Shown piece by piece: positions 6,011 through 45,714 of a stretch of DNA of 64,000 bases. A program made the translations under genes and the position numbers. The notes beneath the pieces were generated by a model. The model searched no databases. It had not been told where the DNA came from and worked only from the letters and a program-made list of their open reading frames with translations. Origin of the DNA: an uncultured Gammaproteobacteria bacterium (GTDB lineage: Bacteria > Patescibacteriota > Patescibacteriia > UBA9934); the NCBI GenBank assembly GCA_964552565.1, contig CAZKGL010000001.1:237113-301112 (forward strand). Direction: 5' to 3'. How positions within the stretch are numbered: position 1 is the first letter of the stretch; each line of letters begins with the position of its first letter.

Positions 6011-7032
6011 CTTCTGTTCTTGTTGAGCGAACGCGGCTGTGGTTAACTCATGTCGGCCGATTCACGGCAAGTACGACGGAAGGCTCGTCGCCCCGCAACG
6101 GTAGGGCGCCAACAGAGAGGGCCGTGCGTGCGACTCGTCGGCAGGACATGCGTGCCTGCAGCAGGGAGTGTGTGGTGAACCGCTTGCAGAAGATCGTTGA
6201 CAAGACGTCGTATAGCGCGGCCTGCGCGGCATGCAAGGCCGCGAAGGATGTAGGTCTCAACAACGAAAGCGATGTCGCGCTTCGTACGGGCCCGCTGTTC
6301 TTGCTCGTGGGTTGCGCGGTGGTGGCCTTGGGATTCCACGGCATCGAAGACGCCGACATCGCCGCGGTGATGTTGCTGGTCGGGGCCATTTTCGGACTTG
6401 TTGGTCCCATCGTGACGCTCGTTGGCGTGTGGGCAAAGCTTACCGGAGGGCCGCGGCGCTTTGACTTCCTTGTGCCCACGGAGGCTGGGCTCGAGTACCA
6501 CGCGCACCGCGAGAATCCGGTTGCGCACATCAACCTCCTCGCAAAGGGGAAGTGGCACGACGCGGCCATTGTCCTCGAGCTCGAGGGAGAACGCACGCGG
6601 TGCACGCTGCTGCGCGTGGGGTTCGCGGCGCCGTCGTGGAAGCTCTCCCGGGTGTCCGGGAATGCGATCATCCACATGTCGGACGAGTATGGCTGCAGCA
6701 TCGATACGTCGCCGCTGGAGTGCATGCGCATCCTGCTCGCCTACATCGGTTCGGTCGGCCGGATCGTCGACGAGTGCCTTGATGAGGTGCGCAACGACCA
6801 TCGCGTGGGGGTGCTCTCCCGCGGATTGGTCGCGATTGGGCTCCTCACCGGACCGGACCGCAAGTTCAGCATCACCCGCCTGGGTCCGTCGGGACGGATC
6901 GTACACGAACGCGTGCGGCAGACGCTCGCGGCTGCCGGCGACGACGTCGACCCGGCGATCGAAGGGATGGCGGAAGAGGACGCCATCAAGATCCGGGACG
7001 CCTTCAAGGAGTCTCACGGCAAGGCGTTGTAG
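5995..7032 (+). CDS. Hypothetical membrane protein
   Basis: ORF with hydrophobic segments (LFLLVGCAVVALGF, LLVGAIFGLVGPIVTLVGV). The true start is probably internal, for example M at about 6148. Confidence 0.4.
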   Translation: MPGAGASVLVERTRLWLTHVGRFTASTTEGSSPRNGRAPTERAVRATRRQDMRACSRECVVNRLQKIVDKTSYSAACAACKAAKDVGLNNESDVALRTGPLFLLVGCAVVALGFHGIEDADIAAVMLLVGAIFGLVGPIVTLVGVWAKLTGGPRRFDFLVPTEAGLEYHAHRENPVAHINLLAKGKWHDAAIVLELEGERTRCTLLRVGFAAPSWKLSRVSGNAIIHMSDEYGCSIDTSPLECMRILLAYIGSVGRIVDECLDEVRNDHRVGVLSRGLVAIGLLTGPDRKFSITRLGPSGRIVHERVRQTLAAAGDDVDPAIEGMAEEDAIKIRDAFKESHGKAL

Positions 7033-7039
7033 TATTTCG

Positions 7040-7082
7040 CATCGCGTCCCGCCCGGGTTCATGCCTGGGGCGGGCGCTTTCT
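7040..7082 (+). repeat. Terminator-like repeat, copy 2
   Basis: catcgcgtcccgcccgggttcatgcctggggcgggcgctttctcttg, matching 5969-6010. Confidence 0.55.
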
Positions 7083-7230
7083 CTTGTGGATAACTTACTG
7101 CGAAACTAAGTTTCGAAACTTCGTTTCGGGGTGTGGATGATCGCTTGCGTGTTCGTAATCTGTACGGTATCGTTCGAATACAAATTACGATAGGTACCCC
7201 TAGAGCCCCGGCTCTCGGGGCATTTGCGTT

Positions 7231-9294
7231 ATGGAGTTTTCTCTCCGCTCACAATACCAACCCGCAGGCGACCAGCCGAAGGCGATACAGGAACTCACGG
7301 ACGGCCTCCGCGAGGGTTTGTCGCGCCAAACGCTGCTCGGCGTCACCGGGTCGGGCAAGACGTTCACGATGGCGAACGTCATCCAGCGCGTGCAGAAGCC
7401 GACGCTCGTCATTGCGCATAACAAAACGCTTGCAGCGCAGCTGTGCCAAGAGTTCCGCGAGTTCTTTCCGGAAAACGCGGTCGAGTATTTCGTGAGCTAT
7501 TACGATTACTACCAGCCGGAGGCGTACTTGCCGCGCACCGACACGTACATCGAGAAGGACGCGCAGATCAACGAAGAGATCGACCGCTTGCGCCACGCCG
7601 CGACGCAGGCGCTCCTCACGCGGCGCGACGTCATCATCGTCGCGTCGGTGTCGTGCATCTACGGCCTTGGTTCGCCGGCCGAGTATAGCAAGAGCGGCAT
7701 GCGCATCATGATCGGTGACCCGCTGTCGCGCACCGAACTGCTGCGCCGCCTCGTCGACATGCAGTTCACGCGCACGACGACGGACCTGTCGCGCGGCCAG
7801 TTCCGCGCCCAGGGCGACGTCATCGAACTCATGCCGATGAACGAAGAGGTGTTGTACCGCCTCACCATCGAGGACAATCGCGTGCACGAGATGCTGCTGC
7901 TTGACCACGTCACGCGCATGGTGCGCGAACGGTTGACGCAGATGTGGCTCTTCCCGGCAAAGCACTACATGACCGATGCGCTCAGCCGTGAACGTGCGCT
8001 CCAGGACATCGAGGCCGAGCTCAAGGAGCAGCTTGCGCGGTTTGAGAAGGAGGGCAAAGTGCTCGAGTACGAGCGGTTGTCGCGCCGCACCCGGTACGAC
8101 GTCGAGATGATCCGCAACATCGGGTTCTGCAGCGGCATCGAGAACTACTCGCGCCATTTCGACGGTCGTCGCGAAGGCCAACCGCCGTACACGCTGCTTG
8201 ACTACTTCCCGGACGATTTCCTGACCGTCATCGACGAGTCACACGTCACGCTGCCGCAGATCGGCGGCATGTACGCCGGCGACCAGGCGCGCAAGTCGGT
8301 GCTCGTCGAGCACGGGTTCCGCCTGCCGTCCGCAAAGGACAACCGGCCGCTCCAATTCGATGAGTTCATCGACCGCATCGGCGCGATGGTGTACGTCTCG
8401 GCGACACCGGGGGCGTATGAAGCGACGACATCGCAGAAGGTCGTCGAGCAGATCATCCGCCCGACCGGCCTCGTGGACCCGGAGACCATCGTGCTCCCAG
8501 TGGTCGCGTCCGGCGACTACCCGGGGCAGATCGGCGATCTCATCGTGCGTATTGAAGACCGTATCGGCAAAGGCGAGCGCACGCTCGTGACGACGCTCAC
8601 GAAAAAGATGGCGGAGGACCTCACCGAGTATCTCAAAGAACGGAAGATCAAGGTGGCGTACTTGCACTCCGACGTCGAGACGCTGGAGCGCATCACGGTG
8701 TTGTCCGACTTGCGCAAGGGGACGTACGACGTGGTCGTCGGCGTCAACCTGCTGCGCGAGGGCCTCGACCTGCCGGAGGTATCGCTCATCGGCATCCTCG
8801 ACGCGGACAAGGAAGGGTTCCTGCGCTCCGAGACGTCGCTCATCCAGACCATCGGACGCGCGGCGCGCAACGTCAACGGCCAAGTCGTGCTCTACGCCGA
8901 CCAGATGACCGGGTCGCTCACGCGCGCGCTGAAGGAGACGGAACGCCGCCGCACCTTGCAGCTGGCGTACAACAAGGAGCACGGCATTACGCCGGAGACG
9001 ATTAAGAAAAAGATCGGCGACATCCGCGCCGAGCTCATGAACGAGCGGCCGGGCGACATCCAGCAGGTGCTGAAGATCGAAATGACCGCGTCGGCGAAGG
9101 AGCTGCGCGAAGTCATCGCGGAAAAGAAAGAGGAGATGGCGATGGCGTCGGCGAACCTCTTGTTCGAAACCGCCGCGATCCTCCGCGACGAGATTATTGC
9201 GCTCGAAGCCGAGCTCGCCCAAGAAAAAAAGCGGACCGCCCGCGCCTCCACGAAAGGGAAGCGGGGCGGTACACGGACGAAGACGGCGGGCTAG
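7231..9294 (+). CDS. uvrB: Excinuclease ABC subunit B
   Basis: MEFSLRSQYQPAGDQPKAIQEL, GVTGSGKTF Walker A, full-length helicase domains, C-terminal UvrB/UvrC interaction motif. Confidence 0.95.
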   Translation: MEFSLRSQYQPAGDQPKAIQELTDGLREGLSRQTLLGVTGSGKTFTMANVIQRVQKPTLVIAHNKTLAAQLCQEFREFFPENAVEYFVSYYDYYQPEAYLPRTDTYIEKDAQINEEIDRLRHAATQALLTRRDVIIVASVSCIYGLGSPAEYSKSGMRIMIGDPLSRTELLRRLVDMQFTRTTTDLSRGQFRAQGDVIELMPMNEEVLYRLTIEDNRVHEMLLLDHVTRMVRERLTQMWLFPAKHYMTDALSRERALQDIEAELKEQLARFEKEGKVLEYERLSRRTRYDVEMIRNIGFCSGIENYSRHFDGRREGQPPYTLLDYFPDDFLTVIDESHVTLPQIGGMYAGDQARKSVLVEHGFRLPSAKDNRPLQFDEFIDRIGAMVYVSATPGAYEATTSQKVVEQIIRPTGLVDPETIVLPVVASGDYPGQIGDLIVRIEDRIGKGERTLVTTLTKKMAEDLTEYLKERKIKVAYLHSDVETLERITVLSDLRKGTYDVVVGVNLLREGLDLPEVSLIGILDADKEGFLRSETSLIQTIGRAARNVNGQVVLYADQMTGSLTRALKETERRRTLQLAYNKEHGITPETIKKKIGDIRAELMNERPGDIQQVLKIEMTASAKELREVIAEKKEEMAMASANLLFETAAILRDEIIALEAELAQEKKRTARASTKGKRGGTRTKTAG

Positions 9295-20323: not shown

Positions 20324-21076
20324 ATGGCAAAGATCCAGGCGGTTATTTTGGCCGGCGGGAAGGGGACGCGCCTTGCGCCGCTGACGGACAATCTCCCGAA
20401 ACCGTTGGTGCAGGTCGCGGGCGTGCCGATTCTTTGGTACGTGCTTGGCCATCTCCGCCGCGCCGGCATGACCGACGTCGCCATCTCCGTCGCGCACCTC
20501 GGGCACATGATTGAAGACGCGCTCGGCGACGGCGGCGCGTTTGGCATGCGGGTGACGTATCTGCGCGAACCGGAGCCGATGGGGACCGGTGGGTGGGCGA
20601 AGCTCGTCGATTGGGATGCGCTCGACGACCATTTCCTCGTGTTGAACGCCGACAACATGTTTTGGATCGACCTCCCGCAGTTCCTGGCGCGGCACCACGG
20701 CGAAGGCGGCGTCGCGACGCTCGCGGCGATCGAGCTGCCGGCGGGCGACATCATGAACTATGAAATCCTCCGGCCGTCAGACGCGAAGACACGGCTCGAC
20801 GCGTGGGTCGATCGTTCGCGCACCGCGGAGGAGCTTGCGGGGAAGGCGAGCGGGTTCATCAACTCCGGTTGGTATGTCATGACGCCGGCCGTGCGGCCGT
20901 TCGTGACGGACGTGTTGCCGTTCTCAAACGAAACGCATTTGTGGCCTGCGCTTGCCGCGTCCGGCGAAACGATTGGGTTCTACCACGCAACCGAACCGTG
21001 GTTTGATTCCGGCACGCACGAGCGGCTCGCCCGCATTGAAGAATTTTTGAAGAACAATCCGAACTATGGTGCGTAA
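20324..21076 (+). CDS. Sugar-phosphate nucleotidyltransferase (NTP_transferase domain)
   Basis: MAKIQAVILAGGKGTRLAPLT...PKPLV motif. Confidence 0.75.
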   Translation: MAKIQAVILAGGKGTRLAPLTDNLPKPLVQVAGVPILWYVLGHLRRAGMTDVAISVAHLGHMIEDALGDGGAFGMRVTYLREPEPMGTGGWAKLVDWDALDDHFLVLNADNMFWIDLPQFLARHHGEGGVATLAAIELPAGDIMNYEILRPSDAKTRLDAWVDRSRTAEELAGKASGFINSGWYVMTPAVRPFVTDVLPFSNETHLWPALAASGETIGFYHATEPWFDSGTHERLARIEEFLKNNPNYGA

Positions 21077-26733: not shown

Positions 26734-28041
26734 ATGAAAATCGCAATTATTGGAACCGGCTATGTGGGACTCGTGTCCGGCGCGGATTTCGCGTCGCGGG
26801 GGTTTGACGTCGTCTGCGTTGACATTGACGCCGGACGTATCGCGGGACTGCAGCAGGGCGTCATGCCGTTTTTCGAAGAGGGGCTCGAGCGGTTGGTGAC
26901 GGACGGCGTTGCGGCGGGGACGCTGTCGTTTACGACGGACGGCGCGACGGCGATCGTCGGTGCCGACGTCGTCATGACCGCGGTTGGGACGCCGCTTGGC
27001 GCCGACGGACGCGCGGACCTTTCTGCGGTGTACGACGTTGCCGCGCAGTTTGGCGCATCGGTCACGGGCCGCGCCGTCCTCGTCAACAAGTCAACGGTCC
27101 CGGTCGGCACCGCGGAAGCGTGCGAGGCGATCGTCCGCGGCGCGCTCGCAAAACGCGGCGTCTCGTTCGATGTCGCCGTGGTGTCGAACCCGGAGTTTTT
27201 GAGCCAGGGGACTGCGGTACGCGACACGGCGCGACCGTCGCGCATCATCGTCGGTGCGGAAGAGGATTGGGCGCGCGAGGTCATGCGGGAGCTCAACGCA
27301 TCCTTCATCGATGCGGGCGTGCCGTACCGCGAGATGTCGCGCCGCAGCGCGGAGATGGCGAAGGTCGCGGCGAACGCGTTCCTTGCGACGAAAATCAGTT
27401 TCATTAATGAGATCGCGAACCTCTGCGAGCGGACCGGCGCCCGCGTCGACGAGGTCGCGGAGAGCATGGGCCTCGACAGCCGTATCGGCCCCGCATTTCT
27501 CCGTGCCGGCCTCGGCTACGGCGGCGGGTGCATCCCGAAGGACGCCGCGGCGCTCATTGCCGCCGGCCGCGACGTTGGCTACGACTTTCGCATCCTTCCG
27601 GCGGTCGAGGAAGTCAACGCGCTCCAGCGCGAACTGTTGTACGCCAAGTTGTGCGAGATGCTTCCGGAACGCAAAGGGACGCGCGTCGCGGTTTGGGGGC
27701 TGGCGTTCAAGCCGGGAACCGACGACCTGCGCCTTGCGCCGGCGCTTTCGCTTCTCGCCCACCTTCTCGACGACGGCGTCGACGTCGTCGCGTTCGACCC
27801 CGCCGCGGCGGCGAATGCGGCGAAGCGTTTCCCGTCCGTCACGTTTGTCGACGACCCGATGGCCGCGCTTGCGGGCGCCGATGCGCTCGCCATCTGTACG
27901 GAGTGGAATATGTTCTCTTCCTCTACGCTCTCCGACATCCGCGATGCGTTGCGCGGCGACATTGTGCTCGACGGCCGCGGAGTTTTTCGCACGCAAAAAC
28001 CGCCGCAAGGACTGCGCTATTGGAGCATCGGATGTGGATAA
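26734..28041 (+). CDS. ugd: UDP-glucose 6-dehydrogenase
   Basis: MKIAIIGTGYVGLV Rossmann motif and catalytic Cys region (GYGGGCIPKD). Confidence 0.9.
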   Translation: MKIAIIGTGYVGLVSGADFASRGFDVVCVDIDAGRIAGLQQGVMPFFEEGLERLVTDGVAAGTLSFTTDGATAIVGADVVMTAVGTPLGADGRADLSAVYDVAAQFGASVTGRAVLVNKSTVPVGTAEACEAIVRGALAKRGVSFDVAVVSNPEFLSQGTAVRDTARPSRIIVGAEEDWAREVMRELNASFIDAGVPYREMSRRSAEMAKVAANAFLATKISFINEIANLCERTGARVDEVAESMGLDSRIGPAFLRAGLGYGGGCIPKDAAALIAAGRDVGYDFRILPAVEEVNALQRELLYAKLCEMLPERKGTRVAVWGLAFKPGTDDLRLAPALSLLAHLLDDGVDVVAFDPAAAANAAKRFPSVTFVDDPMAALAGADALAICTEWNMFSSSTLSDIRDALRGDIVLDGRGVFRTQKPPQGLRYWSIGCG

Positions 28042-39418: not shown

Positions 39419-40033
39419 CTATTTTCCGAGCGCGCCGGACACGATTCGATAGACGATGCCGAGCATGACCGCGGTGGCGAGTACGACGAACACGATATAG
39501 CCGGTCCCGTTGCCGCTCCGCAGCGCTTCTTTGATGATGACATGATAGACGAGGCCGCCGATCATTACGATGCCGAAAAGCGACAGGAAGATGGACCACG
39601 CGATGTGGCGCTCCCGGAAGAGCATGTGGTTGTACGGGTCTGCGGGGTCGTACTGCACGGTGATCGTCGAAGCGGGGGGGTGCGCGTCCGCATAATTCTC
39701 CGCGGTGAACGCCCATGCGAATTTCCTGCTGTCCGTGCCCTGCAGCATGATTGAGGCATTCTCCGGATTGGGGAACGTGTAGCTGACGTACACGTCGTAG
39801 TTGTGCCCAGTGCCCCACGTTGGTTTGCCGGTCGGCGCAGGCACGCTGGTTTCGACGATGCGGACATCCGTGACGGTCGCGGTTGCGGTCGCCGTGAGGT
39901 CCGCGCCCTCCGATGCGTCTTGGAAGCCGCCCCAGACGAGGATGCCCATGGGGACGGACACGATGCCAATGATGAGGAGCACGACGAGGAACATGATGAC
40001 GTCGCCCATACGAGATCCCTTGGGGGTGTGCAT
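39419..40033 (-). CDS. DUF3592-like membrane protein, paralog 2
   Basis: N-TM, about 110-aa domain, two C-terminal TMs. Alternative start at 40009 (MGDVIMF). Its stop abuts the paralog 1 start. Confidence 0.5.
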   Translation of the reverse strand: MHTPKGSRMGDVIMFLVVLLIIGIVSVPMGILVWGGFQDASEGADLTATATATVTDVRIVETSVPAPTGKPTWGTGHNYDVYVSYTFPNPENASIMLQGTDSRKFAWAFTAENYADAHPPASTITVQYDPADPYNHMLFRERHIAWSIFLSLFGIVMIGGLVYHVIIKEALRSGNGTGYIVFVVLATAVMLGIVYRIVSGALGK

Positions 40034-40170
40034 AGGTGAAAGATTGTTCCTCCCCAGTATACATCGCGCGGTTCTCGCGACGAAAATGCGCTGTGCGCAC
40101 GACCCCGTTTGTCGTCTTGCCGCGGACGGTTCCCGTTATCCCCATCCCCCTCCTTCACCACAACCGCTAG

Positions 40171-40206
40171 TGGTATACTTTGGGGTACGGACACAACATG
40201 TTGTGT
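40171..40206 (+). promoter_or_regulatory. nrdJ promoter (extended -10 TGgTATACT) followed by a perfect 16-bp palindrome ACACAACATGTTGTGT (NrdR-box-like operator)
   Basis: The palindrome at 40191-40206 matches the NrdR box consensus acaCwAtATaTwGtgt. It sits about 12 nt downstream of the -10, overlapping the likely transcription start. Confidence 0.5.
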
Positions 40207-40337
40207 TCGGATGGAATGGTGGAGGGACAAAGCAAAACCCCTCGGTCGGGTTATTTTTTTCCCAAATTCACGGTTTTTTCACGAAACACGAGTCCGGGTA
40301 ATCTCATAAACCCATAAGATTACTTCCTTCACGGGCT

Positions 40338-43300
40338 ATGTCAGAAATCACAGCGCGCGTCGCCCCCCAGGCGGCGTCGGAAGGTCAGATTGCAGGTGCG
40401 GTTTGGCAGTTTATGACCTCGGTCAAAGAAGTGAAAAAACGCGACGGAGCAAGCCAGGCGTTTTCCGCTGACAAGCTTCGTGCGTCCGTCGAGAAGGCGC
40501 TCGCCGCAGCCGGGCAGAACAATGCCGACGCCTATGCCGGCCGCATCACGTCGCAGGTCGTGTCCCGCCTGACGCGCCAGTTTGACGGACACCGCGTTCC
40601 GACCACGTCGGAGATCCGCGAAGTCGTGTCCGTTGCCATCATCGACAACAACCTGATCCACGTCGCGAAGGCGTACATGGGGTTCAAGGCGCGGACGGAG
40701 GCTGCGGTGCCGGGCGAGAAGTACGGCAAGGGCCTTCCGTTCAGCCGCTACTTTACGAAGGACGGCGTGGCGCCGTACGCCATGCTCGAGTGGGAGAAGC
40801 GCAGCGCGGTCATCACGAACGAGAAGGGCAAGGTCGTGTTCGAACAGCACGACATCGAGGTTCCGAAGGGGTGGTCGCAGACCGCCACGAACATCGTCGC
40901 CCAGAAGTATTTCCGCGGGAAGGTCGGCACGCCGGAGCGCGAGACGTCCATGAAGCAGCTCATCGACCGCGTGGCCAAGACCATGGCGAACTGGGGCCGC
41001 AAGGACGGTTATTTCGCGACGAAAGAGGATGCGCAGGTTTTTGAAGATGAACTGACGTGGATTCTCATTAACCAGATGGCCGCGTTCAACAGCCCGGTCT
41101 GGTTCAATGTGGGCATTAATCCGCACCCGCAGTGTTCCGCGTGCTTCATCAACTCCGTGCAGGACGACATGCGTTCGATTTTGAACCTCGCGGTCACGGA
41201 AAGCATGCTCTTCAAGCAGGGCTCGGGCACGGGCAGCAACCTCTCCAAGCTCCGCTCGTCGCAGGAATACCTCGGCGGCAGCAACGGCAAGTCGTCCGGC
41301 CCCGTATCGTTCATGAAGGGCCTCGATGCCTTCGCGGGCATCGTCAAGAGCGGCGGCAAGACGCGCCGCGCGGCGAAGATGGTCATCTTGAACGTCGACC
41401 ATCCCGATGTCATGCAGTTCATCGAGTGCAAGGCGAAGGAGGAGCGGAAGGCCTGGACGCTGGTCGACGCCGGCTACGACAGCAGCATGGACGGCGAGGC
41501 GTACTCGAGTATTTTCTTCCAGAACGCGAACAACTCGGTGCGCGTGACGGATGGCTTCATGCGTGCGGTGGAGAAGGACGAGGAGTGGGTGACGAAGGAG
41601 ATTACGACCGGTAAGGATTCGCTGAAGTACAAGGCGCGCGACCTTTTCCGCGCCATGGCCGAGGCGGCGTGGCAGTGCGGCGACCCGGGCATCCAGTACG
41701 ACACGACCGTGAACCTCTGGCACACGAGCAAGAATACGGACCGCATCAACGCGTCGAACCCGTGCTCGGAATACATGTTCCTCGACGACACCGCCTGCAA
41801 CCTTTCGTCGCTCAACCTCATGAAGTTCCGCAAGGAAGCAAACGGCGTCATGGAGTTCGACGTGGAGGCGTTCACGAAGGCGTCGGAGGTCATGATTACC
41901 GCGATGGAGATCACGGTCGGCAACTCGAGCTACCCGACGCCGGCCATCGAGCAGAACAGCCACGACTTCCGCCCGCTCGGTATCGGCTACGCGAACTTGG
42001 GCGCGCTCCTCATGAGCCGGGGCCTTGCATACGACTCGGACGAGGGACGCAACCTCGCCGCCGCGATTACCGCGCTCCTTTCGGGCGCGACCTATGCGCA
42101 GTCGGCGCGCATCGCCGAGAAGATCGGCGCGTTCTCGGCCTTTGCCGTGAACCGCGAGCCGTGCATGGGCGTCATGGAGATGCACCGCCGCGCGTCCTAC
42201 GAGATGGCGCCCGCGGGCGTCCCGGCAGACCTCATGGCGGCGGCGAAGAAGAGCTGGGACGAGGTCGTCGACCGCGGCTACCAGCACGGGCTGCGTAACG
42301 CGCAGATTTCGGTCATCGCCCCGACCGGCACCATTTCGTTCCTCATGGATTGCGACACGACCGGCATCGAGCCGGACATCGCGCTCGTGAAGTACAAGTG
42401 GCTTGTGGGCGGCGGCATGCTGAAAATCGTGAACAATACCGTCCCGGAGGCGCTGACCCGCCTTGGCTACGGCGAGGCGGAGTGCAAGGATATCCTCGCC
42501 TACATCGACGAGAAGGACACCATTGAAGGCGCCCCGCACCTGAAGCCGGAGCACGTCGGCGTGTTTGACTGCGCGTTCAAGGCGAAGAACGGGACGCGCA
42601 CCATCCACCACATGGCGCACATCAACATGATGGCCGCGGTGCAGCCGTTCGTGTCCGGGGCCATCTCGAAGACGGTCAACATGCCGAACGAGGCGACGGT
42701 CGAAGATATCATGGACGTCTACATGAAGGGCTGGAAGCTCGGCTTGAAGGCGATCGCCATCTACCGCGACGGCAGCAAGCGCCAACAGGCACTTACCACG
42801 TCGAAAGAAAAAGACTCTGCGAAGGCGAATGCGAAAGAACTAGGCGGGGCCACCGCGCCCCGCCCGGAAGAGAAGAAGGATGAAACGGTCGCCGCGGCGA
42901 TCGAAACCGTAAAGGTGCAGGTGAACCCCGCAACCGCGTCGCGCCGCCGCCGCTTGCCGGACGAGCGCCGCGCCCTCACGCACAAGTTTGCGATCGGCAG
43001 CCACGAGGGCTATATCACCATCGGCCTCTACGACGACGGGACGCCGGGCGAGCTCTTCGTCACCATGTCGAAGGAAGGTTCGGTCATCAGCGGCCTCATG
43101 GATGCGTTCTCGACCAGCGTGTCGATTGGCCTGCAATACGGCGTGCCGCTCCACGTGCTCGTGAACAAGTTCGCGCACATGCGCTTTGAGCCGTCGGGCT
43201 TCACGAACAATCCCAACATCCGCATCGCGAAGTCCATCATCGACTACATCTTCCGCTACCTCGCCATGAAGTTCCTCCCGGTCGATGCACAGCTCCAGGT

Positions 43301-43601
43301 CGGCATCAACGTCGTCGAGACGCATGGCAATGACATAGGCGGGGTCACCGCGCCCCGCCAGGAAACGGTCGTGCAGCCGATCACCGACGCACAGCCGACG
43401 ATCTTCGCCTCACCGCTCGCGACCGACACGAACCCCGTCATGTCGCCGGGCACTGCGCCCGCGAAGACGACGCCCGGCCTCACGGCGACGTTCGACAACC
43501 AGTCGGACGCCCCGACGTGCGACACGTGCGGCAGCATGATGGTCCGCAACGCCGCGTGCTACAAGTGCCTGAATTGTGGGAGTACGAGTGGATGCAGTTA
43601 A
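40338..43601 (+). CDS. nrdJ: Ribonucleotide reductase class II (adenosylcobalamin-dependent), with N-terminal ATP cone and C-terminal zinc ribbon
   Basis: ATP cone, NPCSEY active-site motif, C-terminal CDTCGSMMVRNAACYKCLNC. Two REP-variant palindromes are embedded in-frame (42843-42864 and 43338-43359). Confidence 0.9.
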   Translation: MSEITARVAPQAASEGQIAGAVWQFMTSVKEVKKRDGASQAFSADKLRASVEKALAAAGQNNADAYAGRITSQVVSRLTRQFDGHRVPTTSEIREVVSVAIIDNNLIHVAKAYMGFKARTEAAVPGEKYGKGLPFSRYFTKDGVAPYAMLEWEKRSAVITNEKGKVVFEQHDIEVPKGWSQTATNIVAQKYFRGKVGTPERETSMKQLIDRVAKTMANWGRKDGYFATKEDAQVFEDELTWILINQMAAFNSPVWFNVGINPHPQCSACFINSVQDDMRSILNLAVTESMLFKQGSGTGSNLSKLRSSQEYLGGSNGKSSGPVSFMKGLDAFAGIVKSGGKTRRAAKMVILNVDHPDVMQFIECKAKEERKAWTLVDAGYDSSMDGEAYSSIFFQNANNSVRVTDGFMRAVEKDEEWVTKEITTGKDSLKYKARDLFRAMAEAAWQCGDPGIQYDTTVNLWHTSKNTDRINASNPCSEYMFLDDTACNLSSLNLMKFRKEANGVMEFDVEAFTKASEVMITAMEITVGNSSYPTPAIEQNSHDFRPLGIGYANLGALLMSRGLAYDSDEGRNLAAAITALLSGATYAQSARIAEKIGAFSAFAVNREPCMGVMEMHRRASYEMAPAGVPADLMAAAKKSWDEVVDRGYQHGLRNAQISVIAPTGTISFLMDCDTTGIEPDIALVKYKWLVGGGMLKIVNNTVPEALTRLGYGEAECKDILAYIDEKDTIEGAPHLKPEHVGVFDCAFKAKNGTRTIHHMAHINMMAAVQPFVSGAISKTVNMPNEATVEDIMDVYMKGWKLGLKAIAIYRDGSKRQQALTTSKEKDSAKANAKELGGATAPRPEEKKDETVAAAIETVKVQVNPATASRRRRLPDERRALTHKFAIGSHEGYITIGLYDDGTPGELFVTMSKEGSVISGLMDAFSTSVSIGLQYGVPLHVLVNKFAHMRFEPSGFTNNPNIRIAKSIIDYIFRYLAMKFLPVDAQLQVGINVVETHGNDIGGVTAPRQETVVQPITDAQPTIFASPLATDTNPVMSPGTAPAKTTPGLTATFDNQSDAPTCDTCGSMMVRNAACYKCLNCGSTSGCS

Positions 43602-43610
43602 ACGAGAGAG

Positions 43611-43640
43611 CATAGACGGGGTCCCCGCACCCCGTCTATG
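43611..43640 (+). repeat. REP palindrome, copy 1 (catagacggggtccccgcaccccgtctatg)
   Basis: Perfect 10-bp stem ATAGACGGGG/CCCCGTCTAT with loop TCCCCGCA. Confidence 0.8.
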
Positions 43641-43650
43641 ATTTTCCTGT

Positions 43651-44049
43651 ATGCGCCAAATCACCAAGCGTCTCCTACCAGGACAGGATCTTCGCGATGA
43701 AATCGAGAAGGTCGTCCATGACCATGATGTGAAAGCAGGAGTTCTGCTTTCCATCGTCGGATGTCTTACGTCCTTACGGCTTCGCGTCGCTGACGGGGTG
43801 ACGGTCAAGGAATGGAGCGAGAAGTTTGAAATCGTATCCGGCACCGGGACGGTATCGGTCAACGATAGCCACATCCATATCGCGGCCGCAAACCAGGAGG
43901 GCATGACGATTGGCGGGCATCTTAAACAGGGCTGCATCGTGGGAACGACGGTAGAGCTCGTGGTTCTTGCGTTCGATGACATTGCATATGTTCGCGAACC
44001 GGATGCTGCGACCGGATACGATGAGCTCGTTATCCGCGAAAAACCATAG
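43651..44049 (+). CDS. PPC/DUF296 domain protein (PD1-like DNA-binding)
   Basis: DUF296 fold pattern (IHIAAANQEGMTIGGHL...GTTVELVVLAFDD). The stop codon lies inside REP copy 2. Confidence 0.55.
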   Translation: MRQITKRLLPGQDLRDEIEKVVHDHDVKAGVLLSIVGCLTSLRLRVADGVTVKEWSEKFEIVSGTGTVSVNDSHIHIAAANQEGMTIGGHLKQGCIVGTTVELVVLAFDDIAYVREPDAATGYDELVIREKP

Positions 44050-44075
44050 ACGGGGGTCCCCGCACCCCGTCTATG
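44045..44075 (+). repeat. REP palindrome, copy 2
   Basis: catagacgggggtccccgcaccccgtctatg. Confidence 0.8.
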
Positions 44076-44082
44076 CTGTTCT

Positions 44083-44553
44083 ATGCGAACCTTTCGATGG
44101 CACGACGAACTGAAAAACGATAACGCGATTCATTTTGTTACTTCGGTGACGAAGGGGCGTACGCGGACTTTTGATGACGTGGCGCTCGCACTGTTACTGC
44201 TCGGAGAGATTCACGGATATGCGGAGAGATACTCGATGACGTTGTTTGCGTCGGTGGTCATGCCCGACCACTTCCATGCAATCCTTTGGCCGCAAGGGAA
44301 ACGGACTGTTCCGGAGTTTATGAAAGGGGTGAAGGGTTTTACCGCAAAGAAGGTCGCCGAGTATAGGCGGGGTGCGGGGACCCCGCCTATGGACGTGTGG
44401 CAAGACGAGTATTTTGATCACCTGATTACAGATGAGACTACGCTTGAAGAAAAGATTTGGTACATCATCCGCAATCCGATTGAGGACAACCTCATTGCCG
44501 AAGGCGGCGAGTACCCGTACCTTTTCGTCCAGCCCGATTACGATCCTCGCTAA
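44083..44553 (+). CDS. REP-associated tyrosine transposase (RAYT; IS200/IS605-like Y1 HUH transposase)
   Basis: HUH motif PDHFHAIL and C-terminal WQDEYFDHLI matching the RAYT WQxxY(F/W)DH motif. It contains an in-frame inverted REP copy (44363-44392) and is flanked by REPs. Confidence 0.75.
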   Translation: MRTFRWHDELKNDNAIHFVTSVTKGRTRTFDDVALALLLLGEIHGYAERYSMTLFASVVMPDHFHAILWPQGKRTVPEFMKGVKGFTAKKVAEYRRGAGTPPMDVWQDEYFDHLITDETTLEEKIWYIIRNPIEDNLIAEGGEYPYLFVQPDYDPR

Positions 44554-44579
44554 AGGCGGGGTGCGGGACCCCGCCTATG
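44552..44579 (-). repeat. REP palindrome, copy 4 (inverted), spanning the RAYT stop and the ATG of the next gene
   Basis: aaaggcggggtgcgggaccccgcctATGa. Confidence 0.7.
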
Positions 44580-45176
44580 AAAAAGAACGAACAGCCGGTT
44601 CTCGACGAACGCATCAAAGGCTTCCAAGGTTACGGCTTGGTGCAGCTCATCCATGGCACGGGGAAGGGGAAGACGACCGCTGCGCTCGGGCAGGCTATCC
44701 GGTGCGTGGGTTCCGGCCGGCGCGTCTGCATCGTCTACTTCGACAAAGGCGGAACGACGCACTACAGCGAACGGAAGGTGCTCGATGCGCTGGATGGCAT
44801 CGACTATGTCGCGTCCGGTCGTGACCGCATCGACCCGGTGACGGGACGATTTGATTTTTCGATCACCGACGAGGACAAGGCCGAGGCGGCGCGGGGGCTT
44901 GCTGCGGCGCGCGATGCATTGGCGGGCGACCACGAGGGTCGCCCCTACGATCTCGTTATTCTCGATGAGATCAATTCCACCGTCGCGCTCGGCATGCTTG
45001 GCGAGCAGGATGTGCTCGATGTGCTCGCGAAGAAGCGTCCGGACGTCGAAGTCATCCTCACGGGACGCAATCCGCCCCAGGCGTTCATCGACGCCGCACA
45101 TCTTGTCACCGAAATGACACTGCAGCGTCACTACTTCTATTCCGGCGTGAAGGCGCGGGAGGGGCTTGACTACTAG
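44577..45176 (+). CDS. Cob(I)yrinic acid a,c-diamide / cob(I)alamin adenosyltransferase (CobA/CobO/BtuR type)
   Basis: P-loop HGTGKGKTTAALG, conserved DE and TGR motifs. About 200 aa, typical of this family. Confidence 0.8.
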   Translation: MKKNEQPVLDERIKGFQGYGLVQLIHGTGKGKTTAALGQAIRCVGSGRRVCIVYFDKGGTTHYSERKVLDALDGIDYVASGRDRIDPVTGRFDFSITDEDKAEAARGLAAARDALAGDHEGRPYDLVILDEINSTVALGMLGEQDVLDVLAKKRPDVEVILTGRNPPQAFIDAAHLVTEMTLQRHYFYSGVKAREGLDY

Positions 45177-45282
45177 CCCACCGCCCGCTACAACTCCGCG
45201 CGAACGGTGTGGATATCCGGCCGCTGGCCAAAATCCGCGAGCCGGGTATACTCAGCACCAGCATATTTTTCGCAACGGAATT

Positions 45283-45714
45283 ATGACCATCAACGAAGTG
45301 CTCGAGGCGCTGCAGAATGACTGCGCAGTCGTCGTCGGGGACAGCACGTTTGACCCGCGCGGGCTCGACGCCGTGACGCTGGAAACGGGCGAGACCGTGT
45401 ACTGGGCGTACGAAAAGGACGGCAGCTGGTTGTCCATCGACCCGTCTGGCGAAGAGATCATCCTGTTTGAAGACATCGATGAGGAACTCGAGCCCGAGGA
45501 TGACGTCGTGGTGTACGGCGGGGAGGACTACGAGTTCTCCTACGAAGGGACGGCGACGATTACGAGCGAAGACGGCGAAGAGACGGTCATGACGTTCCGC
45601 GAGTTCGAGTCGCCGGAAGGGGAGATCATCCGTCTGACCGAATCGGAATCGACTGGGGACACGCGTGTTTCCGTCGGCACGAAGCTGACGGAGGACGAAC
45701 TCCAGCCGGCCTAA
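45283..45714 (+). CDS. Hypothetical acidic protein
   Basis: ORF with Asp/Glu-rich sequence. TATACT -10 at 45247. Confidence 0.4.
   Translation: MTINEVLEALQNDCAVVVGDSTFDPRGLDAVTLETGETVYWAYEKDGSWLSIDPSGEEIILFEDIDEELEPEDDVVVYGGEDYEFSYEGTATITSEDGEETVMTFREFESPEGEIIRLTESESTGDTRVSVGTKLTEDELQPA

Follow-up and report, generated by a model that had tools for sequence, protein, structure and literature searches.

The 64,000-nucleotide stretch of DNA analyzed here (the window; contig CAZKGL010000001.1, positions 237,113 to 301,112) derives from an uncultured, Uhrbacteria-like member of the candidate phyla radiation (CPR) and carries nrdJ, the gene for a class II, adenosylcobalamin-dependent ribonucleotide reductase (RNR). 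The most probable reading of the DNA around this gene, to which we assign a probability of roughly 0.8, is that nrdJ heads a transcription unit in which genes for a PCC-domain protein and a transposase are followed by cobO, a gene for a corrinoid adenosyltransferase, and that the unit is transcribed from an extended -10 promoter lying inside a two-box operator for the repressor NrdR. Two NrdR-type boxes flank the -10 hexamer in the window, and the same layout is conserved at the nrdJ promoters of divergent relatives; NrdR would be the protein that binds them, and cobO would be cotranscribed with nrdJ.

The promoter was read directly from the sequence. The extended -10 element TGGTATACT that a previous reading, made from the sequence alone (the sequence-only reading), had placed upstream of nrdJ is present on the plus strand at 40171-40179, with its hexamer TATACT at 40174-40179. 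The perfect 16-nt palindrome reported downstream of it (box 2; ACACAACATGTTGTGT, no strand assigned) was found at 40191-40206, although the gap after the hexamer is 11 nt and not the 12 nt originally given. Its proposed fit to the NrdR box was borne out. Of the 16 positions of box 2, 14 agree with the NrdR consensus ACACWATATATWGTGT, and no other site in the 64 kb comes within 3 mismatches of that consensus (0.07 expected) or within 3 mismatches of ACACAACATGTTGTGT itself. When a weight matrix trained on 32 sites from relatives, with the window excluded, was scanned over the 63,985 positions of the window, box 2 ranked first with 26.1 bits. The same 16 nucleotides occur in two related loci (L088 and L113). 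Perfect palindromes of this length number 6 in the window, compared with 2.8 expected from Markov simulations; a perfect 16-nt palindrome is thus unremarkable in itself, and the match to the NrdR consensus is the remarkable part.

The statement that only one box is present proved incorrect. A second, degenerate box (box 1; CCACAACCGCTAGTGG, 40158-40173, again without an assigned strand) was identified by the weight matrix and by the spacing seen in relatives. It ranked third among all positions with 8.0 bits; the site ranked second, at 20650, lies within coding sequence, has no partner and was dismissed as a chance match. Box 1 begins exactly 33 bp upstream of box 2, which is the spacing of the closest relatives L002 and L113, and between the two boxes is a spacer of 17 bp that contains the -10 hexamer. 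Since NrdR boxes with spacers of 14 to 18 bp are well bound in vitro (PMC12051234), a spacer of this length is acceptable. Box 1 directly adjoins the hexamer, and the TGG at its 3' end supplies the TG of the extended -10 element. The sequence-only reading had placed the palindrome over the presumed transcription start; box 2 would occupy about +4 to +20 relative to a start predicted near 40186-40188.

Conservation of this layout was examined in relatives collected as NrdJ matches, the best of which were 81 to 60% identical and came from metagenome-assembled genomes of Candidatus Uhrbacteria and other Patescibacteria; a metagenome scan added a further 30 loci with an Uhrbacteria-type NrdJ N-terminus. 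Two palindromes of the NrdR consensus were found at the orthologous nrdJ promoter in 18 of 19 GTDB loci and in 26 of the 30 metagenome loci, some 40 distinct sequences in all, usually spaced 32 to 33 bp start to start and with a -10 hexamer in the spacer. The layout common to these Uhrbacteria-type loci is a DnaA-box 9-mer, box 1, the -10 hexamer and box 2. Directly after box 1 the relatives have TATACT, TACAAT, TATAAT or TAGAAT, and the GTGG end of their box 1 provides the TG of the extended -10 element. Reinspection recovered the layout in L013 and L015, and L009 is the only GTDB locus without boxes. The intergenic DNA around the boxes does not align across the divergent loci, yet the boxes are strongly conserved, which argues that they are under ongoing selection.

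Two further observations were made on these loci. In L009, L109 and L110 a canonical promoter of the form TTGACAC-17-TAAAAT is present instead, preceded by TGTGGACAA and followed by a common leader, GGAAAGGAGGACCATTTCGG; from its sequence, the promoter of this subgroup looks like a replacement of an NrdR-controlled one. Several Uhrbacteria-type loci with the usual promoter layout and an NrdJ 62 to 69% identical to that of the window are titled 'uncultured Gammaproteobacteria bacterium' in third-party annotation records, and these titles are probably wrong.

The palindrome might instead act as a 5' RNA stem-loop that stabilizes the nrdJ mRNA, or be the DNA site of another protein, its likeness to an NrdR box being coincidental. 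With a start near 40186 it would indeed be transcribed and fold as the first hairpin of the leader, and coincidence gains something from the frequency of perfect palindromes in the window. Box 1, however, cannot act as RNA because it lies upstream of the start, and it is nevertheless conserved at a fixed spacing of 32 to 33 bp, while coincidence would have to account for a position-by-position match to the NrdR consensus and for the presence of the same motif upstream of nrdR itself in other lineages. We therefore consider explanations of this kind very improbable.

The conserved promoter layout also includes a DnaA-box-like 9-mer. In the window it reads TTATCCCCA (40136-40144, plus strand), matches TTATCCACA at 8 of 9 positions, and starts 22 nt upstream of box 1. 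The 60 nt upstream of box 1 contain a 9-mer of this type, in either orientation, in 40 of 40 distinct loci; the copy is exact in 26 of them and differs at one position in the other 14, and about 0.2 exact copies would be expected by chance in that 60-nt slot. The TTATCCCCA variant recurs in L007, L008, L014, L108 and L114. Because the offsets of the 9-mer from box 1 cluster at about -15, -25, -35 and -45 in relatives, and so step by about 10 bp, helical phasing is suggested. DnaA 9-mers upstream of the core promoter are established at nrd in Escherichia coli (PMC2500167). Elsewhere in the window, four DnaA-box-like 9-mers lie at 6038-7140, just upstream of uvrB (7231-9294), including an exact TTATCCACA at 7085-7093, and another exact TTATCCACA is found at 28033-28041. 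Altogether 10 sites within 1 mismatch of the DnaA 9-mer were counted in the window, compared with 4.2 expected. In E. coli, too, uvrB is a target of DnaA.

That the boxes are so strongly conserved argues for the existence of some box-binding protein, and several observations point to NrdR. NrdR binds as a tetramer to two boxes overlapping the transcription start (PMC9110341). The nrdR gene lies directly upstream of nrdJ in Armatimonadota, Chthonomonadales, Saccharibacteria and other loci, and the matrix derived from the relatives of the window finds tandem sites 31 to 33 bp apart upstream of nrdR in those nrdR-nrdJ loci, CPR loci included. NrdR is annotated in many Patescibacteria, among them Kerfeldbacteria and Doudnabacteria. 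The order ftsZ-nrdR-nrdJ occurs in high-GC CPR contigs and in L034, where NrdJ has no N-terminal ATP-cone; in L034, L082, L083 and L084 the full order is ftsZ-nrdR-nrdJ(-nudix)-cobO, with NrdJ likewise free of the cone. Uhrbacteria-type loci (the window and L002-L015) have a boxed promoter of their own and no adjoining nrdR, and their NrdJ has an additional ATP-cone of some 125 residues. A literature search found no papers dealing with Patescibacterial NrdR or with CPR nrdJ-cobO.

A number of results weigh against NrdR control of the window promoter. The first concern the DNA itself. The score of box 1 is below those of all 32 training sites, and the central AT that is invariant among them is replaced by CG; since damage to either NrdR box sharply lowers affinity in E. 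coli (PMC12051234), the decay of box 1 implies that the operator may be weak here. No -35 match is recognizable for the nrdJ promoter, and the single mismatch of the 9-mer TTATCCCCA falls within the CACA core of TTATCCACA (TTWTNCACA). Three relatives (L009, L109 and L110) lack the boxes entirely, so NrdR control would be dispensable in some lineages. The second group of results concerns the repressor. No nrdR was found in the 64-kb window by tblastn with E. coli and Streptomyces NrdR, nor in its six-frame open reading frames with a hidden Markov model (HMM) built from 19 NrdRs. In the Uhrbacteria-type GTDB loci, tblastn and the HMM found no nrdR within 10 kb of nrdJ, and on those flanks the HMM gave weak matches to the ATP-cone of NrdJ only. 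When the NrdRs of Saccharibacteria and of Kerfeldbacteria were used to query large protein collections, numerous Patescibacteria NrdRs came back, none of which carried an Uhrbacteria label.

These results might be taken to mean that the boxes are relics, nrdR having been lost and an ATP-cone having moved onto NrdJ for allosteric control while the operator decays. Such a history would be consistent with the extra N-terminal cone of the Uhrbacterial NrdJ, with the absence of nrdR next to nrdJ from every Uhrbacteria-type locus, in contrast to the ftsZ-nrdR-nrdJ order of other CPR lineages, and with the degenerate box 1 of the window and the three relatives without boxes. Decay of the operator is, however, hard to square with boxes that remain strongly conserved over about 40 divergent loci, a sign of ongoing selection. 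Moreover, the ATP-cone of NrdJ is just about 30% identical to NrdR cones and therefore gives no sign of a recent fusion; a recent NrdR-NrdJ fusion was rejected as the origin of the cone on this ground. A relic operator is thus a very unlikely explanation.

Under the preferred reading of a functional NrdR operator, and by analogy with the characterized NrdR family, a dATP/ATP-loaded NrdR tetramer would bind both boxes across the 17-bp spacer and block RNA polymerase. Plentiful deoxynucleotides, signaled by high dATP, would then lead to occlusion of the promoter and shut off the reductase. Because box 1 is without the conserved central AT, repression is predicted to be weaker in the window than in relatives; a repaired version of box 1 is ACACTACATCTTGTGG. 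From its position, the DnaA-box-like 9-mer probably adds an input from DnaA, as at E. coli nrdAB. Downstream, cobO would be the ancestral partner of nrdJ, supplying NrdJ with adenosylcobalamin from what is presumably the same transcript.

The identities of the genes in this unit were examined with curated models. The product of nrdJ (40338-43601, plus strand) passes NCBIfam NF005122 (1453 bits, cutoff 859) and TIGR02504 (600 bits, cutoff 400), which upholds its original assignment as a class II RNR; it matches Pfam PF08471 and PF02867 and contains ATP-cone, class II N-terminal, barrel and TSCPD domains. The start codon at 40338 is supported by an N-terminus that aligns with those of L002 and L005 from residue 1. 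Next on the plus strand are a gene for a PCC-domain (DUF296) protein (43651-44049; Pfam PF03479, 92.6 bits), with a repetitive extragenic palindrome (REP) on either side, and a gene for a REP-associated tyrosine transposase (RAYT; 44083-44553; NCBIfam NF047646, 97.4 bits with a cutoff of 80; Pfam Y1_Tnp). The fourth gene, at 44577-45176 on the plus strand, encodes an ATP:corrinoid adenosyltransferase of the cobO/btuR type, which matches Pfam PF02572 over its full length (165 bits, cutoff 25.7) and has the P-loop GTGKGKT. Its scores on the NCBIfam equivalog models are below the cutoffs (TIGR00708, 126 versus 167.75; NF004637, 143 versus 185). The description of this next housekeeping gene as CobA/CobO-type is accordingly upheld at the level of the CobA/CobO/BtuR family, of which its sequence suggests it is a member, but not at the level of the equivalogs; its exact function would be that of the family. 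Exact look-up gave no record of this nrdJ, and the cobO sequence turned up solely on a 2-kb Logan contig (SRR12113420).

Two features of the surrounding genes were noted in addition. No recognizable Shine-Dalgarno sequence precedes the start codon of any of the four genes from nrdJ to cobO. On the other side of the promoter, a divergent gene for a DUF3592 membrane protein (40033 down to 39419) has an extended -10 element of its own, TGTATACT, at 40057-40064 on the minus strand.

The sequence-only reading had also proposed that nrdJ and cobO were adjacent before a REPtron (a REP-flanked transposase gene) inserted between them, and the comparison with relatives agrees with this. A cobO gene lies downstream of nrdJ in 16 relatives, including one Saccharibacteria locus. 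In L002, the closest of them (NrdJ 81% identical), nrdJ and cobO are 48 bp apart, with one REP of the family found in the window between them; in other relatives the slot between the two genes is taken by a NUDIX-like or HAD-like gene. Neither the PCC gene nor the transposase gene was found in the flanks of any related locus (for the PCC gene, by tblastn). The 48-bp gap in L002 and the absence of both genes from the flanks of relatives argue that they are a lineage-specific insertion, and the PCC gene, the transposase gene and their REPs would have entered between nrdJ and cobO in the lineage of the window. Further downstream, a DUF4178 gene follows cobO in the window (45166-45714) and in L004, L005 and L061, and for this reason may belong to the nrdJ-cobO unit.

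Eight REP copies were counted in the window, 6 of which are at the nrdJ-cobO locus. Two REP-like palindromes lie in frame inside nrdJ on the plus strand. The first (42841-42866, peptide LGGATAPRP) falls in a variable linker where L002 NrdJ has a gap of about 10 residues; the second (43334-43360, peptide IGGVTAPRQ) likewise adds about 10 residues that L002 NrdJ does not have. Together with its flanks, the second forms a 47-nt direct repeat of the first with 81% identity, and the two sit in variable linkers that flank the TSCPD domain. The REP CATAGACGGGGTCCCCGCACCCCGTCTATG (43611-43640, plus strand) follows nrdJ and precedes the PCC gene, and another (44046-44076, plus strand) is found between the PCC gene and the transposase gene. 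An inverted REP lies in frame inside the transposase gene (44363-44392), just before the WQDEYFDH motif, and a further inverted copy (44553-44580, minus strand) contributes, with its last bases, the start codon of cobO. Thus, around a RAYT that passes NF047646, the REPs at 43611 and 44046 point the same way and the copies at 44363 and 44553 are inverted, which is the arrangement of a REPtron.

The previous report that a cobalamin riboswitch was not seen was confirmed by a covariance search: RF00174 gave no match in the window at the gathering score and none in 39950-40500 at E values up to 10. In 11 related loci, likewise, neither a cobalamin riboswitch nor any other Rfam family was found. A B12 riboswitch occurs upstream of nrdAB or nrdDG in genomes that have nrdJ.

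The leader between box 2 and the nrdJ start codon, 131 nt in length, carries GGTGGAGGG, a short hairpin (40236-40252), a U-run and CCC. These parts belong to a terminator-like element at 40219-40263 on the plus strand, made up of the purine tract GGTGGAGGGACAAAG, the hairpin AACCC/GGGTT, the U-run and CCC, which is conserved with L002 in alignment. Of 39 distinct leaders, 23 have a hairpin followed by a T-run in the first 100 nt after box 2, compared with 5.0 expected (P of about 4e-9). The stems vary in sequence while their pairing is kept, and conservation is seen in the flanks CGTCGTCGAT-GGAGGG and TTTTTTGTCCC. Elements of this type, in which a purine tract resembling GGAGG precedes a hairpin of variable stem sequence, a U-run and GTCCC, were seen in L002, L003, L004, L005, L013, L025 and L061, and also in L071, L085-L091, L099-L104 and L113. 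By sequence, the hairpin at 40236-40252 with its T-run has the form of an intrinsic terminator or attenuator, enriched across relatives, and its putative regulatory role may be that of an attenuator or of a bidirectional terminator inside the 5' untranslated region. No Rfam family was found in the leader, and in the whole window only two tRNAs were. A leader peptide was rejected as a general explanation, as start codons and reading frames are not conserved among the leaders.

This element raises the question of whether the main control of nrdJ resides in the leader, with an attenuator at 40219-40263 that is coupled to translation or senses a ligand or nucleotide, and with the decayed box pair in a minor role. 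The enrichment of the hairpins, the pairing retained in stems of differing sequence, the conserved flanks, and a box 1 that is the weakest of its family are all consistent with such an arrangement. On the other hand, the stem in the window is just 5 bp, and 16 of the 39 leaders are without the element. Antiterminator pairing, the alternative fold an attenuator would use, was not identified in the leader, and RNAalifold found no consensus structure on a simple leader alignment; an alignment by MAFFT leaves the hairpins out of register. Box 2 of the window is a perfect palindrome, and conservation of the hairpin is less wide than that of the boxes. We consider attenuation an improbable main control of nrdJ, though less so than the explanations by a stem-loop or by relic boxes, and it would not be mutually exclusive with NrdR control. 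It is similarly a long shot that the leader is a new attenuator- or riboswitch-like RNA specific to Uhrbacteria-type nrdJ-cobO operons (CGTCGTCGAT-GGAGGG, hairpin, U-run, GTCCC). If it were one, the leader RNA would provide a second input in addition to NrdR and DnaA, for instance nucleotide supply, corrinoid status or the coupling of translation.

The two-box operator is genuine and conserved, but it is unsurprising and of a kind already known. It adds an uncultured CPR lineage to those with the textbook NrdR layout, in which two boxes at a distance of three helical turns straddle the -10 element. The linkage of a reductase with the enzyme that activates its cofactor, together with a DnaA-box-like 9-mer, suggests that even very small genomes keep layered control of deoxynucleotide supply. 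These findings are of use for annotation and for the reconstruction of regulons in Patescibacteria and leave the understanding of NrdR unchanged; the leader hairpin and the in-frame REPs in an essential gene are more unusual than the operator itself.

Several known systems were compared with the locus. As in the control of RNR genes by cobalamin riboswitches, B12 is tied to the choice of RNR; the link in the window, however, is made by linkage to the cobO gene and involves no RNA sensing. Known REPtrons and the window share a Y1 transposase with upstream REPs in one orientation and downstream REPs inverted, whereas the window has in-frame REPs within coding sequence (one in the transposase gene and two in nrdJ) and a PCC-domain gene enclosed by REPs. 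At E. coli nrdAB, a DnaA 9-mer lies just upstream of an RNR promoter with NrdR boxes (PMC2500167), and the window has a DnaA-box-like 9-mer in the corresponding place. It differs from E. coli in having a single 9-mer with one mismatch, an orientation that varies among relatives, and a function that is putative.

The closest likeness is to the NrdR operators of Streptomyces coelicolor nrdRJ, E. coli nrdAB, nrdHIEF and nrdDG, and Listeria nrdDG, with which the window shares two 16-bp palindromes of the form acaCwAtATaTwGtgt. In these operators and in the window alike, the box centers are about three helical turns apart and the boxes overlap the -10 element and the transcription start of the RNR gene (PMC9110341, PMC12051234), a start that in the window is predicted. 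The target in the window is a class II nrdJ, as in Streptomyces. The window departs from the known operators in its spacer of 17 bp, where 15 to 16 bp is usual, in the degenerate center of box 1, and in having no nrdR in the operon; it is further set apart by its CPR host and by the presence of cobO in the same apparent transcription unit.

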